Assembly (NCBI GenBank): GCA_963766335.1 | Contig: CAVXZA010000002.1 | Span: forward strand, 1,037,386-1,101,385 | DNA: 64,000 nt | Direction of reading: 5' to 3' | Source: an uncultured Clostridia bacterium | Lineage (GTDB): Bacteria > Bacillota > Clostridia > DUPQ01 | In this document: in pieces, positions 48,423 to 64,000 of the stretch | How positions within the stretch are numbered: position 1 is the first letter of the stretch | Layout of the letters: every line of letters starts with the position of its first letter | Program-made: the position numbers and the translations under genes | Notes under the pieces: generated by a model | Database searches by the model: none | What the model was told of the DNA's origin: nothing | What the model saw: only the letters and a program-made list of their open reading frames with translations

Positions 48423-51400
48423 ATGAAAATATTACTCAAACCGCTGCAGGACATCCCGCAGTTCGACGGGATTATAAAGACCATTTCAGCCGGAAAAGGA
48501 CCCGTTGGAGTCAACGGCCTGGTTGATCCGGCAAGGGCTATTTTCGCATATGCGCTTTTTCAGAAAACCGGAAGACGATGTCTAATACTAACCCACAGCC
48601 GGGTCAAGGCAAAAAAAATATATGAAGGACTGCGTATATTTGATTCCGACGGTGCATTGCATTTTCCCACAAGGGAACTGATGCCTTTCGAAATAGAAGC
48701 TCGAAGCCACGGTTATGAGACTGAAAGAGTAAATGCACTTTACAGATTCGCCATAAATGATTACTCGGTTGCCGTCGCTCCTATTGAAGCAATGTGCATA
48801 AGAATTCGGCAAAAAGGAGGAATTTCTTAAAAAAGTCATAAACATAGAGAAAGCAAAAGAGTATGAAAGGGACAAACTGTCCGAAGAGCCTTACTGGCAT
48901 CCGGTTATGAAAAATGCGACATGGTTGAAAGCGAAGGCCAGTTCGCGGTTCGCGGAGACATCTTTGATATATATTCACCCGGCAGCGACAGGCCATGCAG
49001 AATTAATTTTTTCGGAGATGAGGTAGAAAATATCAAATTTTTTGACCCGGGCACCCAGCTGTCGGATGAAGAAACTGCAATCTGTATTAATATTGCCTTG
49101 CAGCGAGCAGACCGGCTCACTAAAAGATATCATTGAAAAGTTAAAAGCAGTTCCAAATCCGCCAGCGCCGATTTCCTCGGATATAGAAAAGATTGAAAAC
49201 GGTCTTTTGCATTTTCCGATGGACAAACATTTCGCCTTGGTGGACGGAACCTGTTTTGCCACATCATATATAGATGAAGATACAATCATTATCCTTGATA
49301 ATGATAAACGCTGCCTGCGAAAAATGAATACCGTTCTTGAAAGAATACGGCACCACATGTGAAAAACTTCTTGAAACACAATCCGCCGTGCCTGAATCAT
49401 GCATGATGGTAGCCGGTCTGTTTGAATCAATGGGGAAAAGGGAACCTGGGATTATTATCCCCGACATAACCGGTCCGGATGACGAGTTTAGCCTTTACAG
49501 GCAATTTAGCATACTTACAAGGGAAAACCCGTCTTACGGCGGCAGGATGGACCTGCTTCTAGAGGACATCAGGAAATGGAAATCAAAAGGGCGCAGAACA
49601 GCTCTTATTGCACCGTCAAAAAAGAGCAGCCATATATTATCCGATTACCTTGCATCCAATAATATAGACATACACGGCCGAAACAATTATAACGGAGACA
49701 TACACGCAGGAACAGTTGTCATGCTGGACAACGGACCTGCTGAAGGATTTGAAATACTTGAAGCCGGCCTTTGTGTGGTCGGGAGCGGTAAAATTTTCAG
49801 AAAAAGCAAGAAAGAGCAGACAGAACGGAAAAAGCAAAAAGGCATGGATTTATTCGCTGACTTAAAACCAGGGGATTTCGTTGTCCATGATTACCATGGA
49901 ATAGGCAAATACATAGGTATAGAGAATATCAAAGCCGCGGGAATACGCCGCGATTATGTAAAGGTTGAATATAAAAAGAGCGACTACGTATATATACCGG
50001 TAGATAAACTTGATTCAATCCAAAAATACATTGGAAGCGGGGGAAGGGCCCCGAGGCTGTCAATACTGGGCGGCAAAGAGTGGGAGAATACAAAAGCGCG
50101 GGTTAAGGAATCCGTCAAGAACATTGCCAAAGAACTTGTTGAACTATATGCCAAACGTAAAGCTAACAAGGGGCACAGATATTCTGCCGATACAATATGG
50201 CAGGTGTCATTTGAAGAAGAATTCCCGTTTGAAGAGACAAACGACCAACTGCGCTGCATTGATGAAATAAAAGGGGATATGGAATCCGATATCATAATGG
50301 ACAGGCTTCTCTGCGGGGATGTAGGCTATGGAAAAACGGAAGTGGCGCTGCGGGCTGCATTTAAGGCGGTTATGGATGGAAGACAGGTGGCATTCCTGGT
50401 TCCTACAACTGTGCTTGCCTACCAGCATTACAATACATTTAAAAGCAGGATGAAGAATTTCCCTGTTAACATCGAACTTATGTGCCGTTTCAGAAGCAAA
50501 AAACAGCAGCAGCGGACATTAGAGGGTTTAAGGGCGGGAAGCGTTGACATTGTGGTCGGCACGCACAGGCTGCTTCAAAAAGACATTGTGTTCAAAAAGC
50601 TTGGACTGCTTGTAGTAGACGAAGAGCAGAGGTTCGGTGTAGAGCATAAAGAAACAATTAAGAACTATAAAAACGACATTGATGTCCTTACCCTGACTGC
50701 AACTCCCATTCCGCGGACGCTTCACATGTCGCTGTCAGGTATACGTGACATAAGCGTCATTGAAGATCCGCCTGCAAAGCGGTTCCCCGTCCAGACATAT
50801 GTAATGGAATATGACCCGGATGTAATAAGGGATGCAGTCGACCGTGAAATCAGCAGGGGAGGCCAGGTTTTCTACCTTTATAACCGTGTCAGGGAAATGG
50901 ACAGCAAGTATGCTAAACTTAAACAACTCCTGGGCGATGAGGTAAGGATAGGAATCGCCCACGGGCAGATGGATGAAAATAAGCTTGAAAATGTAATGGT
51001 TGATTTCATCAAAGGCGATTATGATGTCCTTCTATGTACAACAATTATAGAATCAGGCCTGGATATCCCGAATGTCAATACAATGATTATTGAAGACTCG
51101 GACAGGATGGGACTGTCGCAGCTCTACCAGATAAGGGGCAGGGTAGGCAGGTCCGACAAAGTCGCCTATGCATACATAACCCATAAACATGGGAAAGTTA
51201 TAACAGAGGACGCATCTAAAAGACTTGAAGCAATAAGGGAATTCACGGAGTTCGGTTCAGGATTCAAAGTGGCAATGCGCGACCTTGAAATCAGGGGCGC
51301 CGGAAATCTTCTCGGCGCAAACCAGCATGGACATCTTGAAAGGATTGGCTACGATCTATATGTAAGGATACTTAAACAGGGCTGTCAAGGAACTCGGCGG

Positions 51401-51915
51401 GGAAAGTTGAAGAAGAAGAGATTCGGACAGCTGCACTGTTGAACTTAATATAAATGCATTTATTGACAAAGAATACATCAGCAATGACCTGATGCGAATG
51501 GAAATGTATAAGAAAATAGCGGTTGTTTCAGATGAAAAACAGAAAAAGAGACTGCTTAGATGAAATGACAGACCGTTTCGGAACACCGCCTGCACGAAAC
51601 TATGGTGCTGCTTGAAGCGGCTCTTGTAAAAAACCTTGCAGCGGCATGTGGTATTGAATCCGTAACTAAGAAACAAATCAGATATAATATTCACTTTTGC
51701 AGAAGGACAGATTCCCGCCTCCTGAAATTCTTGCCAGGCTTCCTGAAATCCTGCCGGGAAGGGCGGTGGTCAGTATGGGAGTTAAGCCCGGAATCAGGCT
51801 TAATAATTTCAAACGGGAAGATGTAGATTTTTCGGCAATATATAAATTGCTGGCATGTATTGAAAATCAGCAAATCATAATATATAGAAACAGTATGTTA
51901 TCTTGCAAAAGATGA
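48423..51915 (+). pseudogene. mfd: transcription-repair coupling factor Mfd, disrupted by multiple frameshifts
   Basis: Mfd-homologous segments occur in alternating frames (48423-48830 f0, about 48815-48915 other frame, 48921-49136 f0, 49042-49362 f1, 49337-51442 f2, then at least four more frame changes to 51915). The helicase motifs DVGYGKTEVALRAAF and the GDFVVHDYHGIGKY RID region are recognisable. Confidence 0.8.
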
Positions 51916-52151
51916 TTATAAAACTATATTTATGATTAGAAATGTGCACAAAATCATTAGAAAAATCCTATATTTAACAAAAAGACAACATTTGTTACAA
52001 AATTGTAAAATTATTAATACATAATTATATAAAAATATCGCAAAAACACAATATTTTGTGGTATATTAGGGTATATAAAACACAAGTATTAGTGGTTCAT
52101 TCAAACTGTTGTCAATACAAGATTGGTCAATTTGCTTTATAGAATCTAAAA

Positions 52152-52177
52152 ATTGTTAAAAATTGTTAAAATATGTT
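52152..52177. repeat. short tandem direct repeat (AAAAATTGTTA x2) in the AT-rich intergenic region upstream of the pilin gene
   Basis: The sequence aaaaattgttaaaaattgttaaaat is seen directly. Confidence 0.6.
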
Positions 52178-52298
52178 ATTATAAGTTGCATTTTTTTTAT
52201 CGAAGTGTAATAATTAGTAGTAGATAAATGGGGATGTTAGCATAGATAAAACCCGGAAAGCATAATCCGGGACAACAAATTTTATGGAGGGTTACAAA

Positions 52299-52676
52299 AT
52301 GCTACAGAATTTAATGAGGAAAATGAAAAAAGGAAACAAGGGGTTCACTCTTGTTGAATTGATGATTGTTGTTGTAATCATCGGTATCTTGATTGCAATT
52401 GCAATTCCTATATACAGAATATCCAGACAACTGCAGAAAGAGAGCATGTCAGGCTAACATAAGAGCAATTATGTCACAGCTTGAAGTTTATAAAGCGGAT
52501 ACTAGATGCTGGAGACGGTATTATATCCATTAACAGCTGAATATGCAGACTTTCATAGACCATGCTATTTCGAGGGAGCAACACCTGAATGTCCAACTAG
52601 CTGACCAGGATATACTTATACCAGTGCAGTGGGGCAACTTATTCATTGACTTGTCCAAATGGACACACTAAGCTGT
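52299..52676 (+). pseudogene. pilA: type IV major pilin (PilA-like), frameshifted
   Basis: Class III signal MRKMKKGNKG/FTLVELMIVVVIIGILIAIAIP is followed, in other frames, by CQANIRAIMSQLEVYKADT and a C-terminal YQCSGATYSLTCPNGHTKL. There are at least 3 frame changes. Confidence 0.65.
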
Positions 52677-52769
52677 AAGTAGCAATGTACTTGTTAGTCA
52701 TTTAGTAATTTTATTTTCCCGGCGAGGTTATCCCGCCGGGGAATAAGTTTTATATTTCAGAACGGGTGG

Positions 52770-53283
52770 GGTATTTTTATGGATGAAAAAGAAAAAAAAT
52801 CCGGTTTTAAGAAGTTTTTAAAAGAAAACCGTTCCCTTGTATTTACCATTCCGGTATTTATAGTATTAGTAGTTGCTGTAATTTTGGTCTATGTTTTAAC
52901 AGGATAATAAGACAGCCGATAATCAGCCGGCTGCCACACCTACTCCTACTGCAACTGAGCAGCAGACTGAACCTACGCCTGCGCCTTCACAATCCGCATC
53001 AGAATCAAGTGGAACAGAAGTCACTACGCTTCCCCAGGATGAGCGCGATAAAGATGATTCTGAAATAATGCGGAATCCTTTTGCAGCCCCATACAAGGTA
53101 AGCGGCATCATATATGATGAAAAAGGCGGAAGCATTGCCATAATTGAAGCAGAAAACAAGACTTTCATTGTAAAAGCCGATGATCAGGTCGGCGAATATT
53201 TTAAAGTTTTAAATATAGAATCAGACAAGGTAGTTTTGGAAATAGAGGGCCAGGAAATTGTACTGGCCATTTCCGGTGAATGA
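52770..53283 (+). pseudogene. PilP-like pilus assembly protein (TM anchor + linker + beta domain), one frameshift
   Basis: MDEKEKKSGFKKFLKENRSLVFTIPVFIVLVVAV in frame 0 continues in frame +1 as a Pro/Thr/Gln linker and ...RNPFAAPYKVSGIIYDEKGGSIAIIE.... Confidence 0.4.
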
Positions 53284-53301
53284 ATATTGGAGGTGTTCTA
53301 A

Positions 53302-54182
53302 TTGGGACGCAGTAAAAAAACCAACACGATGATGAAAACGCTTGCCGTTGTTTTGGCAATGGCTGTTATTGTCGCTTTCGGAGGAACCGCCGCAGCAGCT
53401 ACGGGAGCTGTGCCGGCGGGCATCAGCTACCATGACGACACGGTATTCAAAGCTGACAAGGGTGCTGATGTATCTATTGAAATAGAAGATGCCGATATCA
53501 GGGACATACTGTCCCTTTTTGCGACTAAACTCGGTGTTAATATGGTATATCTTGGCCAAAGTTTTAAGACAAGTTATACCATATCTGAAGTTGATGCCAC
53601 GACAGCATTTGAGATATTTATCAAAAGCTCCGGTGTTAACGGGGAAGCGCTTAGCTTTATCCGCGACGGCGACCTTCTTTTGGTAGGTCCGGCCGGGGAC
53701 ATGGCCAATAGTTTTTCAGATATGCTGGTGTTCACAAGTTTTGAACTTGAGTACATGACGGCACAGGAACTTTCCGGATTATCTGAGCCAGCTGGGGATT
53801 TATGTTAACGAGCTTTACCATAGACCAGATGACTGACAGAATTTTTGTACAGGGTTTCCCATATGAAGTCGCAAAAGTTAATGAAGTGGTTAATATGCTG
53901 GACAATGATGCCTTTTATCCGGACGGCGGCACGGCATTTAACCTTGTTGCATATAACTTGAATTATATCAGCGCATCTACACTTGACGGCGTAATCGGCG
54001 AACTGGGAATAGAGGCTGATACCATTGAATTGGGATCAAGTCCTTCAACCTTATGGGTAAGTGCGGATACCGACCAGCATACAGTAATATCCCAGTTAAT
54101 AACAAAACTTGATACAGCAGCGAATATAAGCGATAACGAATTCGGTGTATACAGACTAAAATATATTAATATAGACTTGTAA
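53302..54182 (+). pseudogene. secretin-N-domain-like (PilQ/GspD N0/N1-like) protein, frameshifted near 53800
   Basis: Signal peptide present. IEIEDADIRDILSLFATKLGVNMVY resembles the secretin N0/STN domain. The second half, ending VYRLKYINIDL, is N1-like. The ORFs 53302-53808 and 53802-54182 are in different frames. Confidence 0.4.
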
Positions 54183-54190
54183 ACAATGCA

Positions 54191-54817
54191 ATGAGTGAGT
54201 TGGGTTTATGGACCACTGCAGAAGGTGAATCGGGCATGGTCACTGTAATACCGAATACAGTTTTAAGTGAAGACCCTTATGCAATACTGGTTAATTTCAA
54301 ATATATAGATAAAGAAATGGTAGATTTCCTGATTGCAGAGCTGGATACACCTTCAAATAATCCTGAAGACCCGGCATTCTTTATTTATACATTTACGAAT
54401 ATGTCTGCTGAAACAGCCCTCGGCAGGATTGATGCATTCGGTGGGAAAAAAGCGTTTGATTCAGATGAAGTTGAATTCAAGGAATTTTCATTCTCAGGAC
54501 TTGGCAAACAGCTTATGGTGCTTTGCACTAAGAGTGAAGAGGCTGATGTAAGAGCATTTCTTGCAGAGATTGATACTCCGGGTACAACGATGATAGTTGT
54601 TGTTGACACAAACGGCGGAGATATTCAGGCAAGAATCCGGCTGATTGACCGAATACCGCTTATTTCATATATATCCGGAGTGCCGGAAAATCATTTTAAA
54701 GTATCAGGAGACATATCAAAAAGCGCTTCACCGCAATATGTAATGTGGGTTGAGGATACACCTGAAAATATTGAAAAGGTTAAGGCTGCAATAGCAAATA
54801 TTGATTCAGGCGAATAA
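54191..54817 (+). CDS. hypothetical protein with secretin-N-like repeats (no beta-barrel secretin domain)
   Basis: 208 aa. It has similar short alpha/beta N-domain-like segments (EADVRAFLAEIDTP...IQARIRLIDRIPL). Confidence 0.35.
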   Translation: MSELGLWTTAEGESGMVTVIPNTVLSEDPYAILVNFKYIDKEMVDFLIAELDTPSNNPEDPAFFIYTFTNMSAETALGRIDAFGGKKAFDSDEVEFKEFSFSGLGKQLMVLCTKSEEADVRAFLAEIDTPGTTMIVVVDTNGGDIQARIRLIDRIPLISYISGVPENHFKVSGDISKSASPQYVMWVEDTPENIEKVKAAIANIDSGE

Positions 54818-54835
54818 TGACCGGCTGAGGATAAA

Positions 54836-56014
54836 ATGACAATATACCAAAGAAACGAAAGTGATAAATATGTGACATCCATTGTGGAAATGCTCCGGCC
54901 GATGACTGAAAGAAAGATTTCTGACCTTCATCTTGTTGCCGGAGTTCCACCCTGTTATAGAGTAAACACAGACCTTGAGCAGCAGGACATGCCTAAGCTT
55001 ACGCCGGAGAACCTGAACTATCTTCTATCCGATATATTATCGCCTATTGACTGGGAACGTCTGGATAAGGAAATGGAATTGGATTTTTCGTATTCAATAC
55101 CCGGCATAGCCAGATACAGAGGAAATGTTATGAAGCAGAGAGGTTCATATGCAGTTGTTTTCAGGGCAGTTCCTTATGAAACTCCTCAGTTCGGAACCCT
55201 TGGACTTCCGGATCAGTAAGGGAGTTATGTAACTTAAAAAGGGGCTTGGTACTCGTTACCGGGCCAACCGGAAGTGGGAAATCCACAACACTGGCTGCCA
55301 TGATTGATATAATCAACAGAACAAGGAAGCTTAAATATTGTAACAATTGAAGATCCCATAGAGTATCTTCACAGGCACAAAAAATCAACAGTCAGGCAGA
55401 GAGAAATAGGGGCAGATACACACTCTTTCGGAAAGGCACTAAGGCATGTATTACGACATGACCCGGATGTAATACTGATTGGTGAAATGCGTGACCTTGA
55501 CAGTATATCCATTGCCTTGACAGCAGCAGAAACGGGACATCTTGTTTTTTCAACATTGCACACCCAGACGGCACCGCTTACTATAAACAGGATAATTGAT
55601 GCATTTGGTGAAAATGAAAGAAAGCAGATAAGACAGCAGCTGGCATCTACGGTTCAGGGAGTTGTGTCACAGCAGCTTATGACGAGAAAAGGCGGCGGCA
55701 GGATAGTCGCATGTGAAATGATGAAAGGTGTTCCGGCAATAAGAAACCTAATAAGAGAAGGAAAGGAACACCAGCTATACAGTGTTATGCAGACGGGCCA
55801 GGAATACGGAATGCAGACAATGGACTATGCTTTGGTTGATATATATAGAAAAGGAAAAATCAGTGAAAAAACACTGTATGAACATTGCATTGACATCAGG
55901 AAGTTGAAAGACTTCTTGACCAAGAAAAGCATAATCCAGTCCAGACGGATGGCGATTGGTAAAGGAGCAATAGATGCCCATATACAAGTACAAATGCATA
56001 ACAAGAAACAGTGA
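54836..56014 (+). pseudogene. pilT: twitching-motility ATPase PilT, frameshifted (at least 2 sites near 55210 and 55315)
   Basis: PilT N-domain in f1. Walker [23 protein letters not shown] in another frame. EDPIEYLH...REIGADTHSF...DPDVILIGEMRD...AAETGHLVFSTLHT in a third frame. Confidence 0.7.
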
Positions 56015-57180
56015 AACCATATTGGGCAAGATAAGTGCTACCAGCACCAATGCTGCTATTGACAGACTGCGGAAAATGAACTTACACTGTAAATATAAAG
56101 CAATCACGCTTTGATGGATTGCAGGGTTTTTTAAAAATGAAAGACCTGTTAAAGTAGGTGATCTTGGTCTTTTCAGCAGGCAGCTTGCATCTATGATTGG
56201 TGCAGGTATTCCGGTTACCAGGGCAATATCAACAATAGCAAGGCAGACAAAAAATCCATCATTTAAAAAAGCTCTTGAAAATATAGCATCAAATGTTGAA
56301 AGCGGAATGAATCTGACTGATTCATTCAGTGGTTATCCGCATATATTTGATGATTTATATGTAAAACTAATTGAATCGGGTGAAATAGGCGGAATGCTTG
56401 AAGGTTCACTGCTCAGAATTGCAGAACAGTTGCAAAAAGACAAAAGCTTAAAGACAGTATTAAATCAGCGACATTTTATCCCAAGATGGTACTTGGCTTT
56501 GCAGTTGTGGTAGCTATCGGAATGATGCTGTTTCTTGTTCCGACTTTCAAGGGAATGGTTAAAGCTGAAGCAGAGATTCCGGGTATAACTCAATTTGTAT
56601 TTGGTCTTTCGGATTCATTTAGAGCCAACTGGTATTGGTATATTATCGGAGTAATTGTTATATTTGCAGCAATTAAAATATTTATATCAAGTAAAATTGG
56701 CAAAAAAATCTGGGATAAAATCAAACCTAAAATACCTGTTTTCGGGCAGATAACAAAAAAAACCATAATTGCCCGTTTTTCAAGAACTTTTTCAACTTTA
56801 CTTGATGGAGGTATACCTGTAATTCAGGCAATGCAAAGTGCCGGAGATACTGCCGGAAGCACAGTTGTCGCAATAAAAATAAGAGAAGCCAGTTTGAACG
56901 TAGAACAGGGTAATAGAATTTCAGATGAACTTGAAAAGCAGGATATATTTCCCGGTACAGTTATACATATGATAGCGGTAGGTGAAGAAACAGGGCAGCT
57001 TCCTGAATTACTGGAAAGGGTTGCCGGGTTTTATGAAGAAGAGGTTGGAACTTTATCAAAGACACTTTCGTCCGTAATAGAACCACTTATGCTTGTGGTT
57101 GTTGGTCTTATTGGTAGGAGGGATACTGATATCCTTGTACCTTCCGATATTCACAGCTGTATCGATCAAATGTAATGAGG
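55978..57180 (+). pseudogene. pilC: type IV pilus platform protein PilC (GspF family), frameshifted (at least 4 sites)
   Basis: The N-terminus MPIYKYKCITRNSETILGKISATSTNAAIDRLRKMNLH and two GspF domains lie in different frames. The C-terminal LVGGILISLYLPIFTAVSIK is recoverable only in a third frame. Confidence 0.7.
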
Positions 57181-57187
57181 TGTTGAT

Positions 57188-58127
57188 ATGATTATAAAAA
57201 GAATAGCAGGGGTTGAGTTCAACGATGATACTGCTAAGGCGGTAGAAATTTATGGTTCTGAAAAGTCGCATAAGATTACTGCTCTTGGCAATGTTATATA
57301 TCTGAGAATGTCATAACTGACGGTGTCTTGGTAAATAATGAAGCCGCTATTGCTGTATTGAAGGAATTATGGAAAAAATATTCTTTTAAAACCAAGGAAG
57401 TAATATTTGGTGTTGACAATAAATATGTGCTTGTCAGATATGCAGATATTGTAAGAACAGCTGATAAAAAGTTTCAAAATGATGTAGAGGCTCAGATACA
57501 GCAGTTTCTGCCTGTTGATAAAAATTCAGTAGAGACCGATTACTTCCCCTGAATGAACACCGAAGACGAGGAAGGTAAAAAGAAAACAAAAACACTAATT
57601 GTTGCTGCAGGGAAGAAAATGCTGAGTGAATATATTGAGATATTCAAAGGAGCAAACTTAGAATAGAGGATATTGATGTTAATACATTGGCAATATACAA
57701 ATTGATTCCGGAAATGAAAAAGACAAAGGAACGGTTATAATTAATTTAAAAAAGATATGTTCAATCTTCTGATTGTAAGAGATGGTCAGCCGTTACTGGC
57801 AAGAAATATAATGATTGATACAAGCAGTGCACTTAATGAAACCGAATTTGTTCAGGAATATTTTGAAGCAATAAACAAAGACATAATATCTTCCCTTGCA
57901 TATTACAATTCAATTACCAGGATTATATTGAGAATATATATATAACCGGATATGGTGTATGGAACGAGGGAATGGTACAGTTCCTAAGAGAAACAACCAA
58001 AGCAGATGTAAAAGTTGTTAATCCTTTCATAAATGAAAAAAACAAGTCGGGAACACCTGACGTGCCAAGACCCTATGAATTTGCTGTTGCATATGCACTG
58101 GCACAGAGGGGATTGGAGAGTGAATGA
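57188..58127 (+). pseudogene. pilM: pilus assembly protein PilM (actin-like ATPase), frameshifted (at least 6 sites)
   Basis: PilM-like pieces are scattered over three frames: MIIKRIAGVEFNDDTAKAVEI, LVNNEAAIAVLKELWKK, EEGKKKTKTLIVAAGKKMLSEYIEIFKGANL, IENIYITGYGVWNEGMVQFLRETTKADVKVVNPF. Confidence 0.65.
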
Positions 58128-58128
58128 T

Positions 58129-58583
58129 ATGACAAGATTAGAATCAGCCTTCTTCCTGCTGAACTAAAAAGACAATCCTCCATGATGAAGATATGGACAA
58201 TACTTGCCCTTGTATTGGCAATACTAGCCTTAATCATGTTGGCTGGAAACATTCTCATTAATTTCTGGTTGAAAATACCGGTTGCAGAACTGGAGTCTTT
58301 GAAGAATCAGAACAAAAGCATGACTGAAAATATTGGTAGGTTGTACTATATACAGGAAATGTTTGATGCGATAGAACTCAACAATAGAATTATTAAAGAA
58401 TTAAGCGGGAATAATCCCGATTGGTCTTATCTCTTAGATGAAACTCGCGACATGACAGTATATGGTATAAATATGAGTCGAATGGAAATTATCACAGTCG
58501 GAGAAGGACAGGGATGTTCCATAACCGGAAACACGAGGAATGTAGACAATTTGAATGTTTGGATCAAACATATGGAATCTTGA
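58129..58583 (+). pseudogene. pilN: pilus assembly protein PilN, frameshift immediately after the start codon
   Basis: KIRISLLPAELK (PilN INLLP-type motif) plus a TM helix and coiled coil. ATG 58129 is in a different frame from the body (58131 onward). Confidence 0.55.
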
Positions 58584-58708
58584 TGGCGTAGAATCGGTTT
58601 CCATATGATAAATATAACAACCACGCCTTCATCCGGCGGTGGATTAATTTTCCATTTTGATGCGATGGTAATCATTGCACGTTGGAACCAGGAATAGGAG
58701 GAAGAGAG

Positions 58709-59288
58709 ATGCCGAAGTATAAAAAGAAAAATACTGTTATGAAATCAGATAATAAAAACGGCAAAAAAGGGTCTGCTATTGGGAACCGTGGTATTTCTAC
58801 TGTCGACATTATAATAATCATAGTCGCCGGTATTGTTATAATTGTATCCGGAATATTTCTCTTCATGAATTTCAGAACATTGAAGCAGGTAAACGAGGAC
58901 ATTACTGAAATGAAACAGATTATTGATGCAAAAGCAGGATACCCTTGATAAACTGATTGAACTTGGTCAAAACGAGGACGCCTTAAAGGAAAATTACGAG
59001 CGGAATAAAATGTTTGTTCCGGAAGAAAAAGATGAAGTAGGAATAATAGCAGATGTTACAGGAATAGTGGAGAATGACGGAGGAATTTTCAGAACAATAA
59101 CCTATAGTGCAGAAATTGTTAAGGAAAACGGAGTTACTGATGTCCCATTCACAATAAGGATAAACAGCACTTATGAACAATTAAGTGAGATTGTTAAAAA
59201 CTTGGGCAGAACCAACAGGTTGTATGTAATTGATTCAATTACATATTATAGAAACAAGCAGCGAAATTCCATTTTAAGCACGATATAG
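58709..59288 (+). pseudogene. pilO: pilus assembly protein PilO-like, one frameshift near 58930
   Basis: AGGAGGAAG RBS. An N-terminal TM helix and coiled coil (58709-58948) continue in another frame as the C-terminal domain (58923-59288). Confidence 0.5.
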
Positions 59289-59332
59289 AGATGCATGCAT
59301 ACTATAAAAAACCATAAATAGGAAGCGAATTA

Positions 59333-61026
59333 ATGCAAGGAAGAATAAGAAGTCAGAAACTCGGGGAAGTGCTAATCCAGAAGGGCACCATAACGGCGGA
59401 CCAACTGGAAGAGGCGCTTTCTTTGGTAAAGAACACAACAGATAAGTCCATGCTTGTTGGCGAGGCTCTTGGTTGAACTTGGTTATTGTTCTGAAAAACA
59501 TATTGCCAGGACCATGGCGCATAAATCCAAAGCCAAGTATGCTAATCTTAATGATGTTAAGATTAACATGCAGGCATCCAATCTGCTGTCGCCTGGCCTT
59601 GCTTTAAGATATGGCGCTCTTCCCATTGGATTTCAGCAGAAGACAATGAGAAACTCATTGTTGCCATGCAGAATCCCACGGATCTTATGACAATAGATGA
59701 CTTGATTCTTTTAACAGGTTATGATATAGAACCTGTAGTGGTAGAGGACAGGCAGCTGCGTAACAGCCTTAGAAAATTTTACAAACATGAGCACCGCTGA
59801 CATTGATGCATATGATGAAGAAGATTTTAATACAGCTGAGGAAGAAGAAGATACACTGGCCCGGCCGGCTGTAAAGCTTGCCAATCAGGTATTAAACCAA
59901 GCCATGAAATCCCTTGCAAGTGATGTTCACATAGAACCACACGAAAAAAAATTAAGATAAGATATAGAATTGACGGTGTATCTGCATGACATCATGCAGC
60001 AGTCCGATAAGGATGTCCGCTTCAATAGTATCCCGATTTAAGGTTCTGGGCAATATGGATATTGCGGAACGCAGGGTTCCGCAGGACGGCAGGATGACTT
60101 TCAGAAGCGAAGGCCGTATTGCTGATATAAGGATAGCTACTCTGCCTACTGTTTTTGGAGAAAAAGTTACGCTTAGGATTGTTGACAGGAACTCCAAGCT
60201 TTTAACATTAGATAAATTGGGAATGCCGGAGAAACAACGCGAAGCTTTTTATCAGACAATAAAAGCGCCATATGGCTTTATATTGATTACCGGACCAACA
60301 GGAAGCGGAAAAAGCACAACGCTTTATGCAGCTCTTACGAGATTGAATTCAGCGGATAAAAACATTATTACACTAGAAGATCCGGTTGAAAGACGAATTG
60401 ACGGGCTTAATCAGATACAGATAAACGAAAGAGCAGGGCTGATTTTTTCTTCCGGCCTTAGGTCTATATTAAGAAGTGACCCGGATATAGTTATGATTGG
60501 TGAAATCAGGGACCGTGAAACTGCTAAGATTGCAGTTGAGTCTGCATTGACAGGCCATTTGGTTTTGTCAACCCTTCACACTAATAATTCAGCGGGTGCA
60601 TTAACAAGACTAGGGGAAATGGGTGTAGAACCATACCTTACTTCATCTTCCTTAATAGGGGTAATAGCCCAAAGGTTACTAAGGGTTCTTTGCGATGATT
60701 GTAAAAAGGAGTATACTATAAGCAGGAATGACCTGCTAAAGACATTCCCGGATTTTCCGATAGAGGACAAAGAGAAGGAGATTAAAATATATAAAGCCGA
60801 AGGTTGCGTTCAATGTAACAATACAGGCTATAAAGGCAGAATGGGTGTTTATGAATTCCTTACTGTAACGGATACAATGCAGGAACTTATATTAAAAAAA
60901 GCATCTACCCTGGATATTGAGGAAACTGCCATAAATGAAGGGATGGTCACTCTAAGGGCCGACGGTATGAACAAGATTAAAGAAGGTCGTACGTCGATTG
61001 AAGAATTCTTCAGGGTCATAGTCTAA
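59333..61026 (+). pseudogene. pilB: type IV pilus assembly ATPase PilB (GspE family), frameshifted in the N-terminal 650 nt (at least 5 sites); ATPase core intact
   Basis: The N1 domain MQGRIRSQKLGEVLIQKGTITADQLEEALSL... is broken over three frames. The ORF 59986-61026 has Walker [13 protein letters not shown], His box and tetracysteine motifs. Confidence 0.75.
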
Positions 61027-61043
61027 CGATTGGAGTGATGATT

Positions 61044-62084
61044 ATGAAAAAATATCTTGGAAACAACAAAGGATGGGCAATGGCGCTTGTCATTGTGTTG
61101 CTTGCAATAGTACCGATTTTTGTGGTTGCATTATACACATATTCGTCAACATCAACCAAAATTGTTCTTAAGCAGATTGAAATAGAAAGGGCAAGGTATC
61201 TTGCGCGTTCGGGTATGGAGGCCGCTGTTTATGTTTGGCAGGATTCGGAACTTGATGCCAAGCCAACCGGCAGCCTGGAGCGCGTTTATCTTACAGCTGA
61301 TGGTGTTTTTGCCAGACAGTCCACTTTGGGCGCTGATGCTATTGCGGCAAGTCTTGGCTATGTGGATGTTACCATTACATTTAATAATGATAATTCCAGC
61401 GATGAATATTTAACAACCAAAATTGAAGCTGAAGGCATTGCAGAAGGTACAGGTTCCAGAATGACTGCAACATCCTTACCCTATTTGGATGGTGATTCAA
61501 CGGGCTGGTACAATAACAACTCAGGTGAATTTAACACTAGCAACGGAGACATCAGCAGGACTATTGCGGACCCAATTGGTGCCACAGTAACATATTTTGA
61601 TTTAGAGGGTGTAGTCACCTGTGATGCAAATGGTGCCTTTACTTTCCAGGATGGGGAGACAGGTATACTTGTTGATACAATTTTCTTTAATGACCCGGTG
61701 GATCTTACGGACGGAAATGACAAATTATTATTCATTACTGCAAAGAAAGTAATCTTCCGGGATGAAGTTAATTTATCAGATGGAGGAGATTATGAATCCC
61801 TGATTCTCCATGCAGCTGCTTTAAATGCTATAGAGGTAGCTGGAAAAACAGGAAAATACGGTGCTGTATATTTCGGCGGAGATGTTACATTAAATGGTTC
61901 AACCATAATTCCCGCCGGAACAAATTACTATTATAAGAGCCGGACAGATGGCGTTGATTTAGTCTCGTGGGCAAACGGGGTATATTCCGCTGATGACAGT
62001 ATCTTTTGGATGATACCTTCATCGGGAGATCAAAATGCTTTTACCCCGAGTGAGGCATCCAGCATATATTTTATATATGAATAG
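61044..62084 (+). CDS. PilX-N-like minor pilin / pilus-associated protein
   Basis: N-terminal NKGWAMALVIVLLAIVPIF plus IEIERARYLARSGMEAAV resembles the PilX_N domain. Intact ORF with a GGAG RBS. Confidence 0.45.
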   Translation: MKKYLGNNKGWAMALVIVLLAIVPIFVVALYTYSSTSTKIVLKQIEIERARYLARSGMEAAVYVWQDSELDAKPTGSLERVYLTADGVFARQSTLGADAIAASLGYVDVTITFNNDNSSDEYLTTKIEAEGIAEGTGSRMTATSLPYLDGDSTGWYNNNSGEFNTSNGDISRTIADPIGATVTYFDLEGVVTCDANGAFTFQDGETGILVDTIFFNDPVDLTDGNDKLLFITAKKVIFRDEVNLSDGGDYESLILHAAALNAIEVAGKTGKYGAVYFGGDVTLNGSTIIPAGTNYYYKSRTDGVDLVSWANGVYSADDSIFWMIPSSGDQNAFTPSEASSIYFIYE

Positions 62085-62097
62085 GAGATGATTTAAA

Positions 62098-63885
62098 ATG
62101 AAAAGGATTTTAAAAAATAATTTAGGAATGACACTGGTAGAAGTCTTGTTGGCTATTCTGATATTTGTTCTAATGATTTGGACTTTCGCGCCCTTTGTAG
62201 CAGCTACTTTTAAACAAATAGCCCAGGCAGGCACACTGCATGTTGAGCTTTCTGAAGATGTTAGCAATATAGACGGCCAGCTTGCCGATGAATTTTTCGG
62301 GGCCCCTAGTACATTTCCCGTGAAGGTTGGGGGCGATGATAACATAGATGTTAATGGAGTTCATCTTACCAGCGGACAACTCCATACTTTCTATTCCGGC
62401 ATAACATCATATATCACCACTGATGACATACTATATGAGGGATATGGGTCCGATGACTTTTACACCGGGTTTTATTCAATTGGCTTCCTTCCGGAAGTAT
62501 CTAATAAAAAGTTTTTCAAAAACCAGCATACTTGGGTTGTTGAGCTAGTCGGTAAGGATGGATTTATATATATGGTGGATGAGGAGATTGATGTGGTTCA
62601 ACAGGATGGAAATCCTCCGGGATTTGATAAAAATGATATAGATCCTGACACTGTTGATGACTTGTCAGGCGTATTCATTGTAGCAAGCCAGTTTCCCGAT
62701 GGTGCAGGAGGTAATCCTGACAAGATTGCTTATATATGCATAGTTCCGGATAAGTACGGGTTGGATAATACCAACTCTCCATATGGATTAGCAATAAAAT
62801 CAAAAGACAAGGGACAGACTTTTGTTGATGAACAAATACCAATTAACGTCATGCTGCCCCTGTATCAGGCCGTTGGCGAAGATGGTTGGGAAAGGATTGC
62901 AAGTCATATCGATTACTGGGTTGATAAGCATGAGTACCATGATCCCGATTACGGGGACGAGGGTATTGATGTAATAAGACTTCCGGAGAATGTCGATTTT
63001 TATGATGTCATGTGGTATGAAGATGATTCTATAGGATTATACATAACTGTCGGAGACGACGGCAATCTCTGGTACAGATACCATGAATCAGACTGGATTG
63101 AAATGGATTTAGTTGTCTCAGGCGACCTCAACAGGATTAAACGCCTCGGAGGTATGTTTGTAGCAATCGGATCGAATGGTACTGTTATAACATCAAATGA
63201 TTTGTCAATATCAACAGACCCTGCAGATATGGGAACAGACCCTTCAGACCCAATGTCATGGGGAACTAACATGGTTACAATTTCGGGAACACCGTCAACA
63301 AAGGATTTAACCGCATTTTCGTATAATTCATCCGTCGGTTATGTAATTATGGCTTCCGATGGCACGGTTTATACTTCATCGGATTTGTCGACCTACACAG
63401 AACATAGTACCGCTGCATCAGGAATAACAGATGCTTCTGTCACTTCGGTTATAATAAATGACATGGTATGGATGGGAAGCCACTTTATTGCCGTAGGCGA
63501 CGACAATTATATAGCTGTTTCTCCAGACGGAACAAACTGGACTATACTTGAACCGTCATCTACAATTGATTCGCCGAACGGATTTGATGATTTTAACTGT
63601 GTATTCGTTAATAGAAGCCAGGGATTTATACTCGGCGACAGCGGCCAGATTCACATGATTGGTCTTGGCGGTGATGTAGGGTCATGGACATGGACAACTG
63701 TTAGAGCCCATAGTGAAGGCGGGGAAAATCTTTATGACATGTCATATTCCCGAAGGGCTTATGTAGTTGTCGGAGAAGACGGCAAGGTAATGTATTCATT
63801 AAACGGAACGACATGGACGGACACAAACAAGATGGATGGCTTTGATACCGAAAAAGATATATTTGCAGTTGCAGGCAGGGAATAA
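62098..63885 (+). CDS. large prepilin-type (class III signal) protein with C-terminal BNR/Asp-box-like repeats, candidate pilus tip adhesin
   Basis: N-terminal NNLG/MTLVEVLLAILIF prepilin cleavage/methylation-type segment. The C-terminal half has repeated S-x-D/N-G-T-x-W(T) motifs (SPDGTNWT, SLNGTTWT, GSWTWTT) and D/NGTV(I/Y)TS repeats. Confidence 0.55.
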   Translation: MKRILKNNLGMTLVEVLLAILIFVLMIWTFAPFVAATFKQIAQAGTLHVELSEDVSNIDGQLADEFFGAPSTFPVKVGGDDNIDVNGVHLTSGQLHTFYSGITSYITTDDILYEGYGSDDFYTGFYSIGFLPEVSNKKFFKNQHTWVVELVGKDGFIYMVDEEIDVVQQDGNPPGFDKNDIDPDTVDDLSGVFIVASQFPDGAGGNPDKIAYICIVPDKYGLDNTNSPYGLAIKSKDKGQTFVDEQIPINVMLPLYQAVGEDGWERIASHIDYWVDKHEYHDPDYGDEGIDVIRLPENVDFYDVMWYEDDSIGLYITVGDDGNLWYRYHESDWIEMDLVVSGDLNRIKRLGGMFVAIGSNGTVITSNDLSISTDPADMGTDPSDPMSWGTNMVTISGTPSTKDLTAFSYNSSVGYVIMASDGTVYTSSDLSTYTEHSTAASGITDASVTSVIINDMVWMGSHFIAVGDDNYIAVSPDGTNWTILEPSSTIDSPNGFDDFNCVFVNRSQGFILGDSGQIHMIGLGGDVGSWTWTTVRAHSEGGENLYDMSYSRRAYVVVGEDGKVMYSLNGTTWTDTNKMDGFDTEKDIFAVAGRE

Positions 63886-63888
63886 GAT

Positions 63889-64000
63889 ATGAAGAAAAGC
63901 ATAAGTGAAAAGTATAATATTCTAAAGAACAGCAAAGGCTTTTCGATTGTTGAGCTATTACTGGCACTTGCCCTTCTTCTTATCGCAATTGGACTTGGTT
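63889..64000 (+). CDS. prepilin-type N-terminal domain protein (3' end lies outside the window)
   Basis: MKKSISEKYNILKNSKG/FSIVELLLALALLLIAIGLG is a class III signal with a hydrophobic helix. Confidence 0.5.
   Translation, partial: MKKSISEKYNILKNSKGFSIVELLLALALLLIAIGLG

Follow-up and report, generated by a model that had tools for sequence, protein, structure and literature searches.

A putative modular minor pilin with a Ycf48-like beta-propeller in a type IV pilus cluster of an uncultured Clostridia bacterium

An open reading frame near the end of the 64,000-nucleotide stretch of Clostridia DNA analysed here (the window) raises two questions: what a prepilin-type protein with a bulky C-terminal domain might do for a type IV pilus, and how its gene comes to be intact beside pilus genes that are broken in the deposited sequence. 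The gene occupies positions 62098..63885 of the forward strand, stop codon included; as read from the window, its 595 codons run without interruption, and a candidate ribosome-binding site, GGAG, lies 9 nt 5' of the ATG at 62098, which bears out the claim of an earlier note that the 595-aa protein is intact. The next gene starts after a gap of only 3 nt. In sample ERR11523668, a separate metagenome contig from short reads (L002) agrees with window positions 60903-64000 at 99.77% identity without a gap and carries a 99.8% identical copy of the gene; the two copies differ at 6 positions, 5 of them synonymous and the sixth giving A232V, a difference owing to which an exact search with the window protein misses this copy. 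The 5:1 excess would be unlikely without purifying selection if, by our own rough estimate, about 1/4 of neutral changes are synonymous. Homologues that span the full length of the protein show 51-68% identity, with one more at 28%, and a scan of genome contigs returned only two loci. The interval 62098-63885 is a real, well-formed gene, and its product joins the modular type IV pilins, an established class, as a new, putative and uncharacterised member.

A pilin module, a connector and a beta-propeller

The protein opens with a class III (prepilin) leader of ten residues (62098..62127, forward strand), basic and ending in glycine. Its N-terminal sequence reads MKRILKNNLG/MTLVEVLLAILIF, with G-1, M+1 and E+5 around the site KNNLG/MTLVE. 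G10, M11, T12, L13, E15 and P32 are invariant among the six closest homologues, and in an alignment of 54 family members G10, L13, E15 and P32, the last being P22 of the mature protein, are conserved at 90% or more; the earlier note's description of a canonical class III signal followed by a hydrophobic helix thus holds for G-1 and E+5 on both alignments. A proline at position 22 typifies the alpha-1 helices of pilins. The window protein itself scores below the cutoffs of the prepilin motif models, with 17.9 bits against Pfam N_methyl (PF07963; cutoff 21.2) and 10.8 bits against TIGR02532 (cutoff 16.3); three relatives (P0003, P0005 and P0006) lie above the threshold, and 44 of the 54 family members match N_methyl at E<=1e-3. 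No prepilin peptidase gene is found within the window; the related cluster L001 encodes PilD (Peptidase_A24).

Residues 11-110 (62128..62427, forward strand) form the pilin module, in which an alpha-1 helix bearing E+5 and P+22 is followed by a four-stranded sheet, as drawn from the second AF2 model and the family profile. A first AF2 run with 18 sequences left aa 47-245 unmodelled; a second, with the 54-sequence alignment, reached a mean pLDDT of 79.6 and a pTM of 0.78 and resolved the pilin module, but not the connector that follows it. The second model places a helix at residues 13-63 (about 50 residues) and strands at 70-75, 83-92, 95-100 and 104-106, with pLDDT of about 80-90. The predicted fold is that of an alpha/beta pilin, with a long alpha-1 helix lying on a small antiparallel sheet, and the family profile matches the N-terminal helices of pilins in the PDB, Geopilin first (4.5e-6) and then MshA and PilA. 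The connector, aa 111-250 (62428..62847, forward strand), is beta-rich as judged from conservation and AF2 and is marked by EGY and N..SPY motifs, of which E114, G115, Y116, N224, S227, P228 and Y229 are invariant in eight sequences; AF2 confidence for this segment is low to medium, and no profile matches it.

The rest of the protein, aa 251-595 (62848..63882, forward strand), is modelled by AF2 as a propeller of seven four-stranded blades over about 345 residues, with pLDDT mostly 85-97 and with the last strand (588-593) completing the first blade. The best Foldseek matches in the PDB are Ycf48 (E 2e-9 to 4e-9, target TM 0.6-0.65), and the family profile finds PDB Ycf48 at E 1e-20. Among the 54 members, 21 match DUF6242, 11 match PSII_BNR (PF14870) and 5 match HVO_0234; the window protein alone matches the NCBIfam Ycf48 model weakly (19 bits, cutoff 326, E 5.6e-4). 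Ycf48/Hcf136 (PDB 2XBG and 5OJP) and the DUF6242/HVO_0234 propellers are accordingly its closest solved fold and closest sequence relative. Ycf48 and the window propeller share seven blades and an AVGxxGxIxxSxDGxxW repeat, yet are only about 15% identical, and Ycf48 is a lipoprotein that acts in photosystem II assembly, whereas the host of the window is a non-photosynthetic Clostridia MAG. The Ycf48 equivalog is defined by score and photosynthetic context; the window protein, at 19 against 326 bits and encoded in a Clostridia pilus cluster, lies outside it.

The earlier note had called this region both BNR/Asp-box-like and Ycf48-like, and the two labels part company here: the second holds on the Foldseek and family-profile homology, and the first fails because the strict motif is absent. 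A regular-expression search for the strict Asp-box S-x-D-x-G-x-[TS]-[WFY] (SxDxGxTW) finds none in aa 251-595, its sole match in the protein being SKDKGQTF at aa 235, outside the propeller, and Pfam BNR, PSII_BNR and Sortilin do not match the window protein even at E<=1; with neither canonical motif nor profile match in the propeller, we ruled out the BNR/Asp-box/sialidase reading. The repeat that is present, a hydrophobic-VGxxG followed at a distance by SxDGxxW, is shorter than an Asp-box. The repeated SxD/NGTxWT motifs that had been noted come down to two clean copies of SxDGxxW type (aa 475, SPDGTNW; aa 567, SLNGTTW) among degenerate ones; they are not canonical Asp-boxes. The data give no reason either to favour or to dismiss a role in glycan binding.

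The propeller is also the most divergent segment of the protein, at 47-50% identity compared with 60-81% for the pilin module and connector, and blades 2-3 are its least conserved part. Propellers of this class have varied roles. Across the propellers of the 54 members, the only near-invariant residues are Gly, Trp and Pro, a pattern that favours a binding scaffold over an enzyme; no catalytic-type or other polar residue is conserved, and profile searches with the window protein and with family members match no hydrolase family. These observations bear on whether the protein is a pilin at all. It might be a membrane-anchored surface protein or enzyme, its propeller perhaps a hydrolase, that borrows a prepilin-type signal and is never polymerised; archaeal substrate-binding proteins with class III signals are a precedent, and the sub-threshold prepilin motif of the window protein points the same way. 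We regard this as very unlikely, given the conserved E+5 and P+22, which serve filament assembly and not anchoring, the position of the gene strictly among pilus genes, and the lack of a conserved polar residue or hydrolase match in the propellers.

The combination is not peculiar to this genome. A profile of the N-terminal 250 residues retrieves 88 representatives (50% identity clusters) at E<=1e-10, and the propeller is also present in about 65 of the first 90 examined, most of these with a signal that can be recognised as G[FM][TS]L[IV]E. A pilin fused to a propeller is an architecture common to at least 60 clusters at 50% identity, all uncharacterised; our literature search found no experimental work on the family.

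The minor-pilin trio and its replacement in a close relative

The propeller pilin is the middle gene of a conserved trio directly after pilB. The first gene of the trio (61044..62084, forward strand) encodes, from the ATG at 61044, a PilX/GspK-like protein of 346 aa without Glu at +5; its N-terminus is prepilin-like, with a PilX/GspK-like helix, and reads KG/WAMALVIV, with ARSGMEAA further on, and its match to GspK is weak. It is 69% identical to its counterpart in L001, the product of 346 aa recurs in L002, and its orthologues in distant relatives carry PilX_N and DUF7305. The third gene starts at 63889 and is cut by the window end at 64000 (forward strand). Its complete product, 312 aa in L002, has a prepilin signal, KNSKG/FSIVE, scores 23.7 bits against N_methyl, and ends in a CFI_box_CTERM segment (NF041770; 93 bits, cutoff 40); a literature search on CFI-box-CTERM found no papers.

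The order of the whole cluster is pilA, gspC-like, secretinN-like, pilT, pilC, pilM, pilN, pilO, pilB, the trio and pilT2, and the order of genes in the window is the same as in the intact clusters of relatives. In L001, pilT, pilC, pilM, pilN, pilO and pilB are followed by a gene of about 350 aa, the propeller pilin, a prepilin of about 300 aa, pilT2 on the opposite strand and the prepilin peptidase; L007 and L008/L009 repeat this order with the machinery intact, L006 shows the trio cassette with pilT2, and the upstream part, with major pilin, GspC-like gene and Secretin_N-only gene, is seen in L005 and L008. Distant relatives retain the trio as a PilX_N/DUF7305 protein, a propeller pilin and a small pilin.

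L005 departs from this pattern at one point. Its pil genes are 83.5% identical to those of the window at the nucleotide level up to the end of pilB; there follow a GspK-like protein of 158 aa, a 558-aa pilin with N_methyl and vWA domains, and a 456-aa pilin, a trio unrelated in sequence to that of the window save for the N-terminal helix of the first gene. The presence of a vWA trio at the same site suggests that the middle position of the cassette holds alternative effector-bearing pilins, and the replacement of the cassette, together with the fastest-evolving propeller, fits a trio that is a swappable pilus-tip binding module. Close relatives that swap a whole tip cassette, propeller trio against vWA trio, offer a natural system for studying the exchange of tip complexes, and one that bears on what environmental Clostridia bind by their pili. 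We saw no GC anomaly in the cassette, and a signal of horizontal transfer was dropped on that account.

The same comparison weighs on a second way of explaining the propeller, namely as a biogenesis factor that primes or caps assembly, as PilY1 also does, with no specific external ligand. The propeller pilin is conserved alongside the PilX-like pilin without E5 in all relatives examined, and complexes of PilY1 and minor pilins are reported to prime pilus assembly in Myxococcus (PMC7541494). However, the closely related L005 cluster has a completely different trio, so that the propeller would be dispensable for the core machine, and fastest evolution is not expected of a pure assembly interface; we consider a role confined to biogenesis improbable. 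A binding role at the pilus tip, which the earlier note had proposed, emerges as the best reading from the position of the trio after pilB and from the replacement by the vWA trio in a close relative.

Apparent disruptions in the genes upstream of the trio

In the deposited sequence every gene is disrupted from mfd, the transcription-repair coupling factor (from 48423), through the first third of pilB (to 60007), all on the forward strand. The indel patch starts in mfd (48423..51915), which the list of open reading frames shows in at least four pieces; the fragments match positions 11-63 and 196-820 of the 907 of the model, the C-terminal part carries five 1-bp insertions relative to L005, and the damage is patchy, with 2.1 kb clean. 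Next come a truncated major pilin (N_methyl E 1.7e-10), a GspC-like gene and a Secretin_N-only gene of about 504 aa spread over three frames (together 52284..54817); the intact orthologues in L005 match Secretin_N at 60.8 bits and GspC weakly. The genes pilT, pilC, pilM, pilN and pilO (54836..59288) are all broken by small indels, as seen from tblastn frames, stop codons and an indel map against L005. The gene for the assembly ATPase, pilB (59333..61026), was located by tblastn with PilB of L001 and L005 and matches T2SSE at E 3e-121; its reading frame is broken as far as position 60007 and undisturbed from 60008.

The earlier note had said that the machinery upstream appears broken and that the propeller pilin is intact nonetheless. 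The description is true of the deposited sequence, and it invites the view that the pil genes and mfd are true pseudogenes and the trio an orphan survivor of a dead pilus system, kept for a pilus-independent role or simply not yet decayed. Frameshifts are numerous in each of the genes from mfd through pilB, which speaks for this view, as do the clean last 3 kb and the 5:1 ratio of synonymous to non-synonymous differences from L002 in the 595-aa gene. If the frameshifts were real, they would leave the propeller pilin without an assembly machine.

The nature of the disruptions argues otherwise. The alignment of the window with L005 has 99 gap openings, 64 of them of 1 bp, with insertions about as frequent as deletions and with contexts that are mostly non-homopolymeric in the listed cases, as read by eye and not counted. 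Mismatches against L005 are strongly biased to third codon positions, as in pilT, where they number 24/13/130. Projecting the window onto the reading frame of L005 takes out the indels, and no stop codon is then left in the six pil genes; with L001 as outgroup they show 65 amino-acid changes specific to the window and 87 specific to L005. With no stops left and with these counts of changes, nothing points to relaxed selection. The disruption reaches mfd, a housekeeping gene, as well, and the source sequence is a single contig of 2.45 Mb; single large contigs are typical of long-read assemblies. Decay of the pil cluster into pseudogenes was judged unlikely after the indel-removal and relative-rate tests. 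The want of any sign of relaxed selection, the damage to a housekeeping gene, its patchiness and the origin from one 2.45-Mb contig together make it very likely that the breakage upstream reflects a part of a long-read assembly that was left unpolished and rich in indels. We found no independent assembly or copy of the damaged zone: an exact search with the PilB fragment yielded no contig, and the members of the 90% clusters of the window's PilT, PilB and Secretin_N fragments come no closer than about 90-95% in undamaged stretches.

What remains of the earlier description is thus a disruption by indels only, which extends to mfd and carries no mark of evolutionary decay, and the implied paradox of an intact gene beside broken machinery loses its support, there being neither stop codons nor an excess of amino-acid changes once the indels are removed. 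With the breakage most likely an artefact, the pilus system is probably functional and the intact trio needs no special explanation. The practical lesson is that the look of a pseudogenised pilus cluster is here probably due to a stretch dense with errors in a publicly available long-read genome.

A proposed place at the pilus tip

We return to the reading that we favour and hold to be probable: the product of the gene is a type IV minor pilin of the modular kind, the trio primes or caps the pilus at its tip, and the propeller is an exposed putative effector. The prepilin peptidase PilD would cleave the precursor after G10. On the model of GspK-I-J, PilVWX-PilY1 and Streptococcus sanguinis PilA-PilB-PilC, the three minor pilins would assemble into a priming complex that comes to lie at the tip of the pilus, and the PilX-like pilin without E5 may sit on top of this complex. 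The propeller, displayed at the tip, could bind a putative ligand on a surface, a polymer or a partner cell, and retraction driven by PilT would then pull the bound target.

To our knowledge, only vWA and lectin modules have been studied among the modular pilins of monoderms. Modular pilins consist of an N-terminal pilin module and an extra domain that is not peculiar to pili (Raynaud et al. 2021, PMC8179133), and the window protein, with its pilin module at aa 11-110 and its propeller at aa 251-595, has this make-up. The prototypes come from Streptococcus sanguinis, in which PilB, a pilin module with a vWA domain, is an adhesin by experiment (PMC8179133) and PilC joins a pilin module to a lectin (Raynaud et al. 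2021, PMC8179133; Shahin et al. 2023, PMC9934059). In the window protein, as in these two, a bulky domain foreign to the pilus is joined to a small pilin module with a class III signal, and the gene belongs to a monoderm-type pilus cluster that encodes further minor pilins, presumed to make up a tip complex; a vWA pilin of the PilB type occupies exactly the middle position of the window trio in L005. Unlike them, its effector is a seven-bladed Ycf48-like propeller, preceded by a connector of about 140 aa. We take IPR028203 to be the Ycf48/Hcf136-like domain. The combination IPR012902-IPR028203 is listed, for one protein, in a survey of modular pilins that counts 264 architectures (PMC8179133). 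Modular pilins account for the acquisition of new functions by simple filaments, and the present family adds a Ycf48-like propeller to their effectors.

A wider proposal would make the trio a swappable tip cassette in which the propeller pilin and the pilin with the CFI-box-CTERM sorting tail cooperate, and would turn the propeller pilins, with their 60 or more clusters at 50% identity, into a widespread and unstudied group of tip adhesins; we think it improbable. If it were true, anaerobic Clostridia would have an undescribed way to process or tether the tip, or the priming complex, of a type IV pilus. The third pilin with its CFI-box-CTERM tail and the cassette swap are what we consider most worth following up.

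Two other kinds of propeller linked to pili invite comparison. PilY1/PilC of diderm type IVa pili resembles the role proposed here, as a tip-presented beta-propeller that works with minor pilins in adhesion and priming, but it is a non-pilin without a class III signal that docks onto minor pilins, whereas the window protein carries such a signal. Membership of the PilY1/PilC tip adhesin family (IPR008707) was ruled out, as the protein has a class III signal and no match to the Neisseria_PilC/PilY1 Pfam model. In the Saccharibacteria strain TM7x, PilX2 is a minor pilin with a seven-bladed propeller that is needed for host binding, and deletion of pilX2 lowers this binding and does not abolish the filaments (PMC11623550). 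The PilX2 propeller is of the RCC1-repeat type and PilX2 has no predicted PilD signal, whereas the propeller of the window protein is Ycf48-like and is preceded by a signal with G-1 and E+5.

A cassette exchanged beyond pilB

Comparison of the window with L005, a relative's contig whose pil genes are 83% identical to those of the window at the nucleotide level, reveals that homology between the two stops at the pilB stop codon and that the entire minor-pilin cassette differs beyond it (L005 9625-13174 versus window 61035-64000). The L005 cassette encodes a GspK-like protein (158 aa), a vWA pilin (558 aa), and a further pilin (456 aa), whereas that of the window encodes a PilX-like protein, the propeller pilin, and a CFI-box pilin. 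Blade 2 of the propeller carries an Asp/Pro/Ser-rich insertion of about 22 residues (LSISTDPADMGTDPSDPMS; window 63196-63261, aa 367-388), which has low pLDDT in the predicted structure; apart from the window protein, only P0002, the relative nearest to it, has this insertion.

The CFI-box pilin and a second PilT

Only the start of the third cassette gene, with the prepilin signal KNSKG/FSIVE, lies in the window (63889-64000); the gene is complete in L002 (2987-3925), a near-identical metagenome contig. At its C-terminus the product carries a CFI-box-CTERM domain (93 bits; cutoff 40), after which come a hydrophobic helix and then a basic tail; roughly 13 clusters at 90% identity combine a pilin with a CFI-box. 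In other settings the CFI-box tail is found on varied surface proteins, e.g. DUF11 proteins, S8 peptidases, and lactonase-like propellers; a C-terminal sorting-type anchor on a pilin is an unusual combination, and our literature search for a pilin with such an anchor found nothing. Just past the window end, directly after the trio and convergent to it, all relatives have a gene for a PilT-like retraction ATPase (L002 3977-4291 and L001 10363-11412, both minus strand); there are therefore two PilT paralogues per cluster.

Indels between mfd and pilB

An indel-rich patch at window 48423-60007 disrupts mfd, pilA, a gspC-like gene, the Secretin_N gene, pilT, pilC, pilM, pilN, and pilO, as well as pilB over its first third. 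Alignment to L005 as reference gives 99 gaps in the patch, the majority of 1 bp; with the indels taken out, six pil genes contain zero stop codons and show no excess of amino-acid change. The damage is patchy, since 49337-51442 within it is clean. The patch looks like an error of unpolished long-read assembly in the public 2.45-Mb contig.

A Secretin_N protein with a GspC-like neighbor

The stretch with the Secretin_N gene and its GspC-like neighbor (window 52779-54817) is uninterrupted in L005 (1255-3291) and has its counterpart in L008 at 296-2617. The Secretin_N gene product, of about 504-595 aa, has two Secretin_N domains and gives weak matches to GspD/PilQ N-domains; the secretin C-domain is absent from this protein. 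The gene upstream encodes a weakly GspC-like protein of about 167-170 aa. This arrangement might be a pilus conduit across the wall in a host without an outer-membrane secretin. The L008 orthologue of the Secretin_N protein has an additional LysM.
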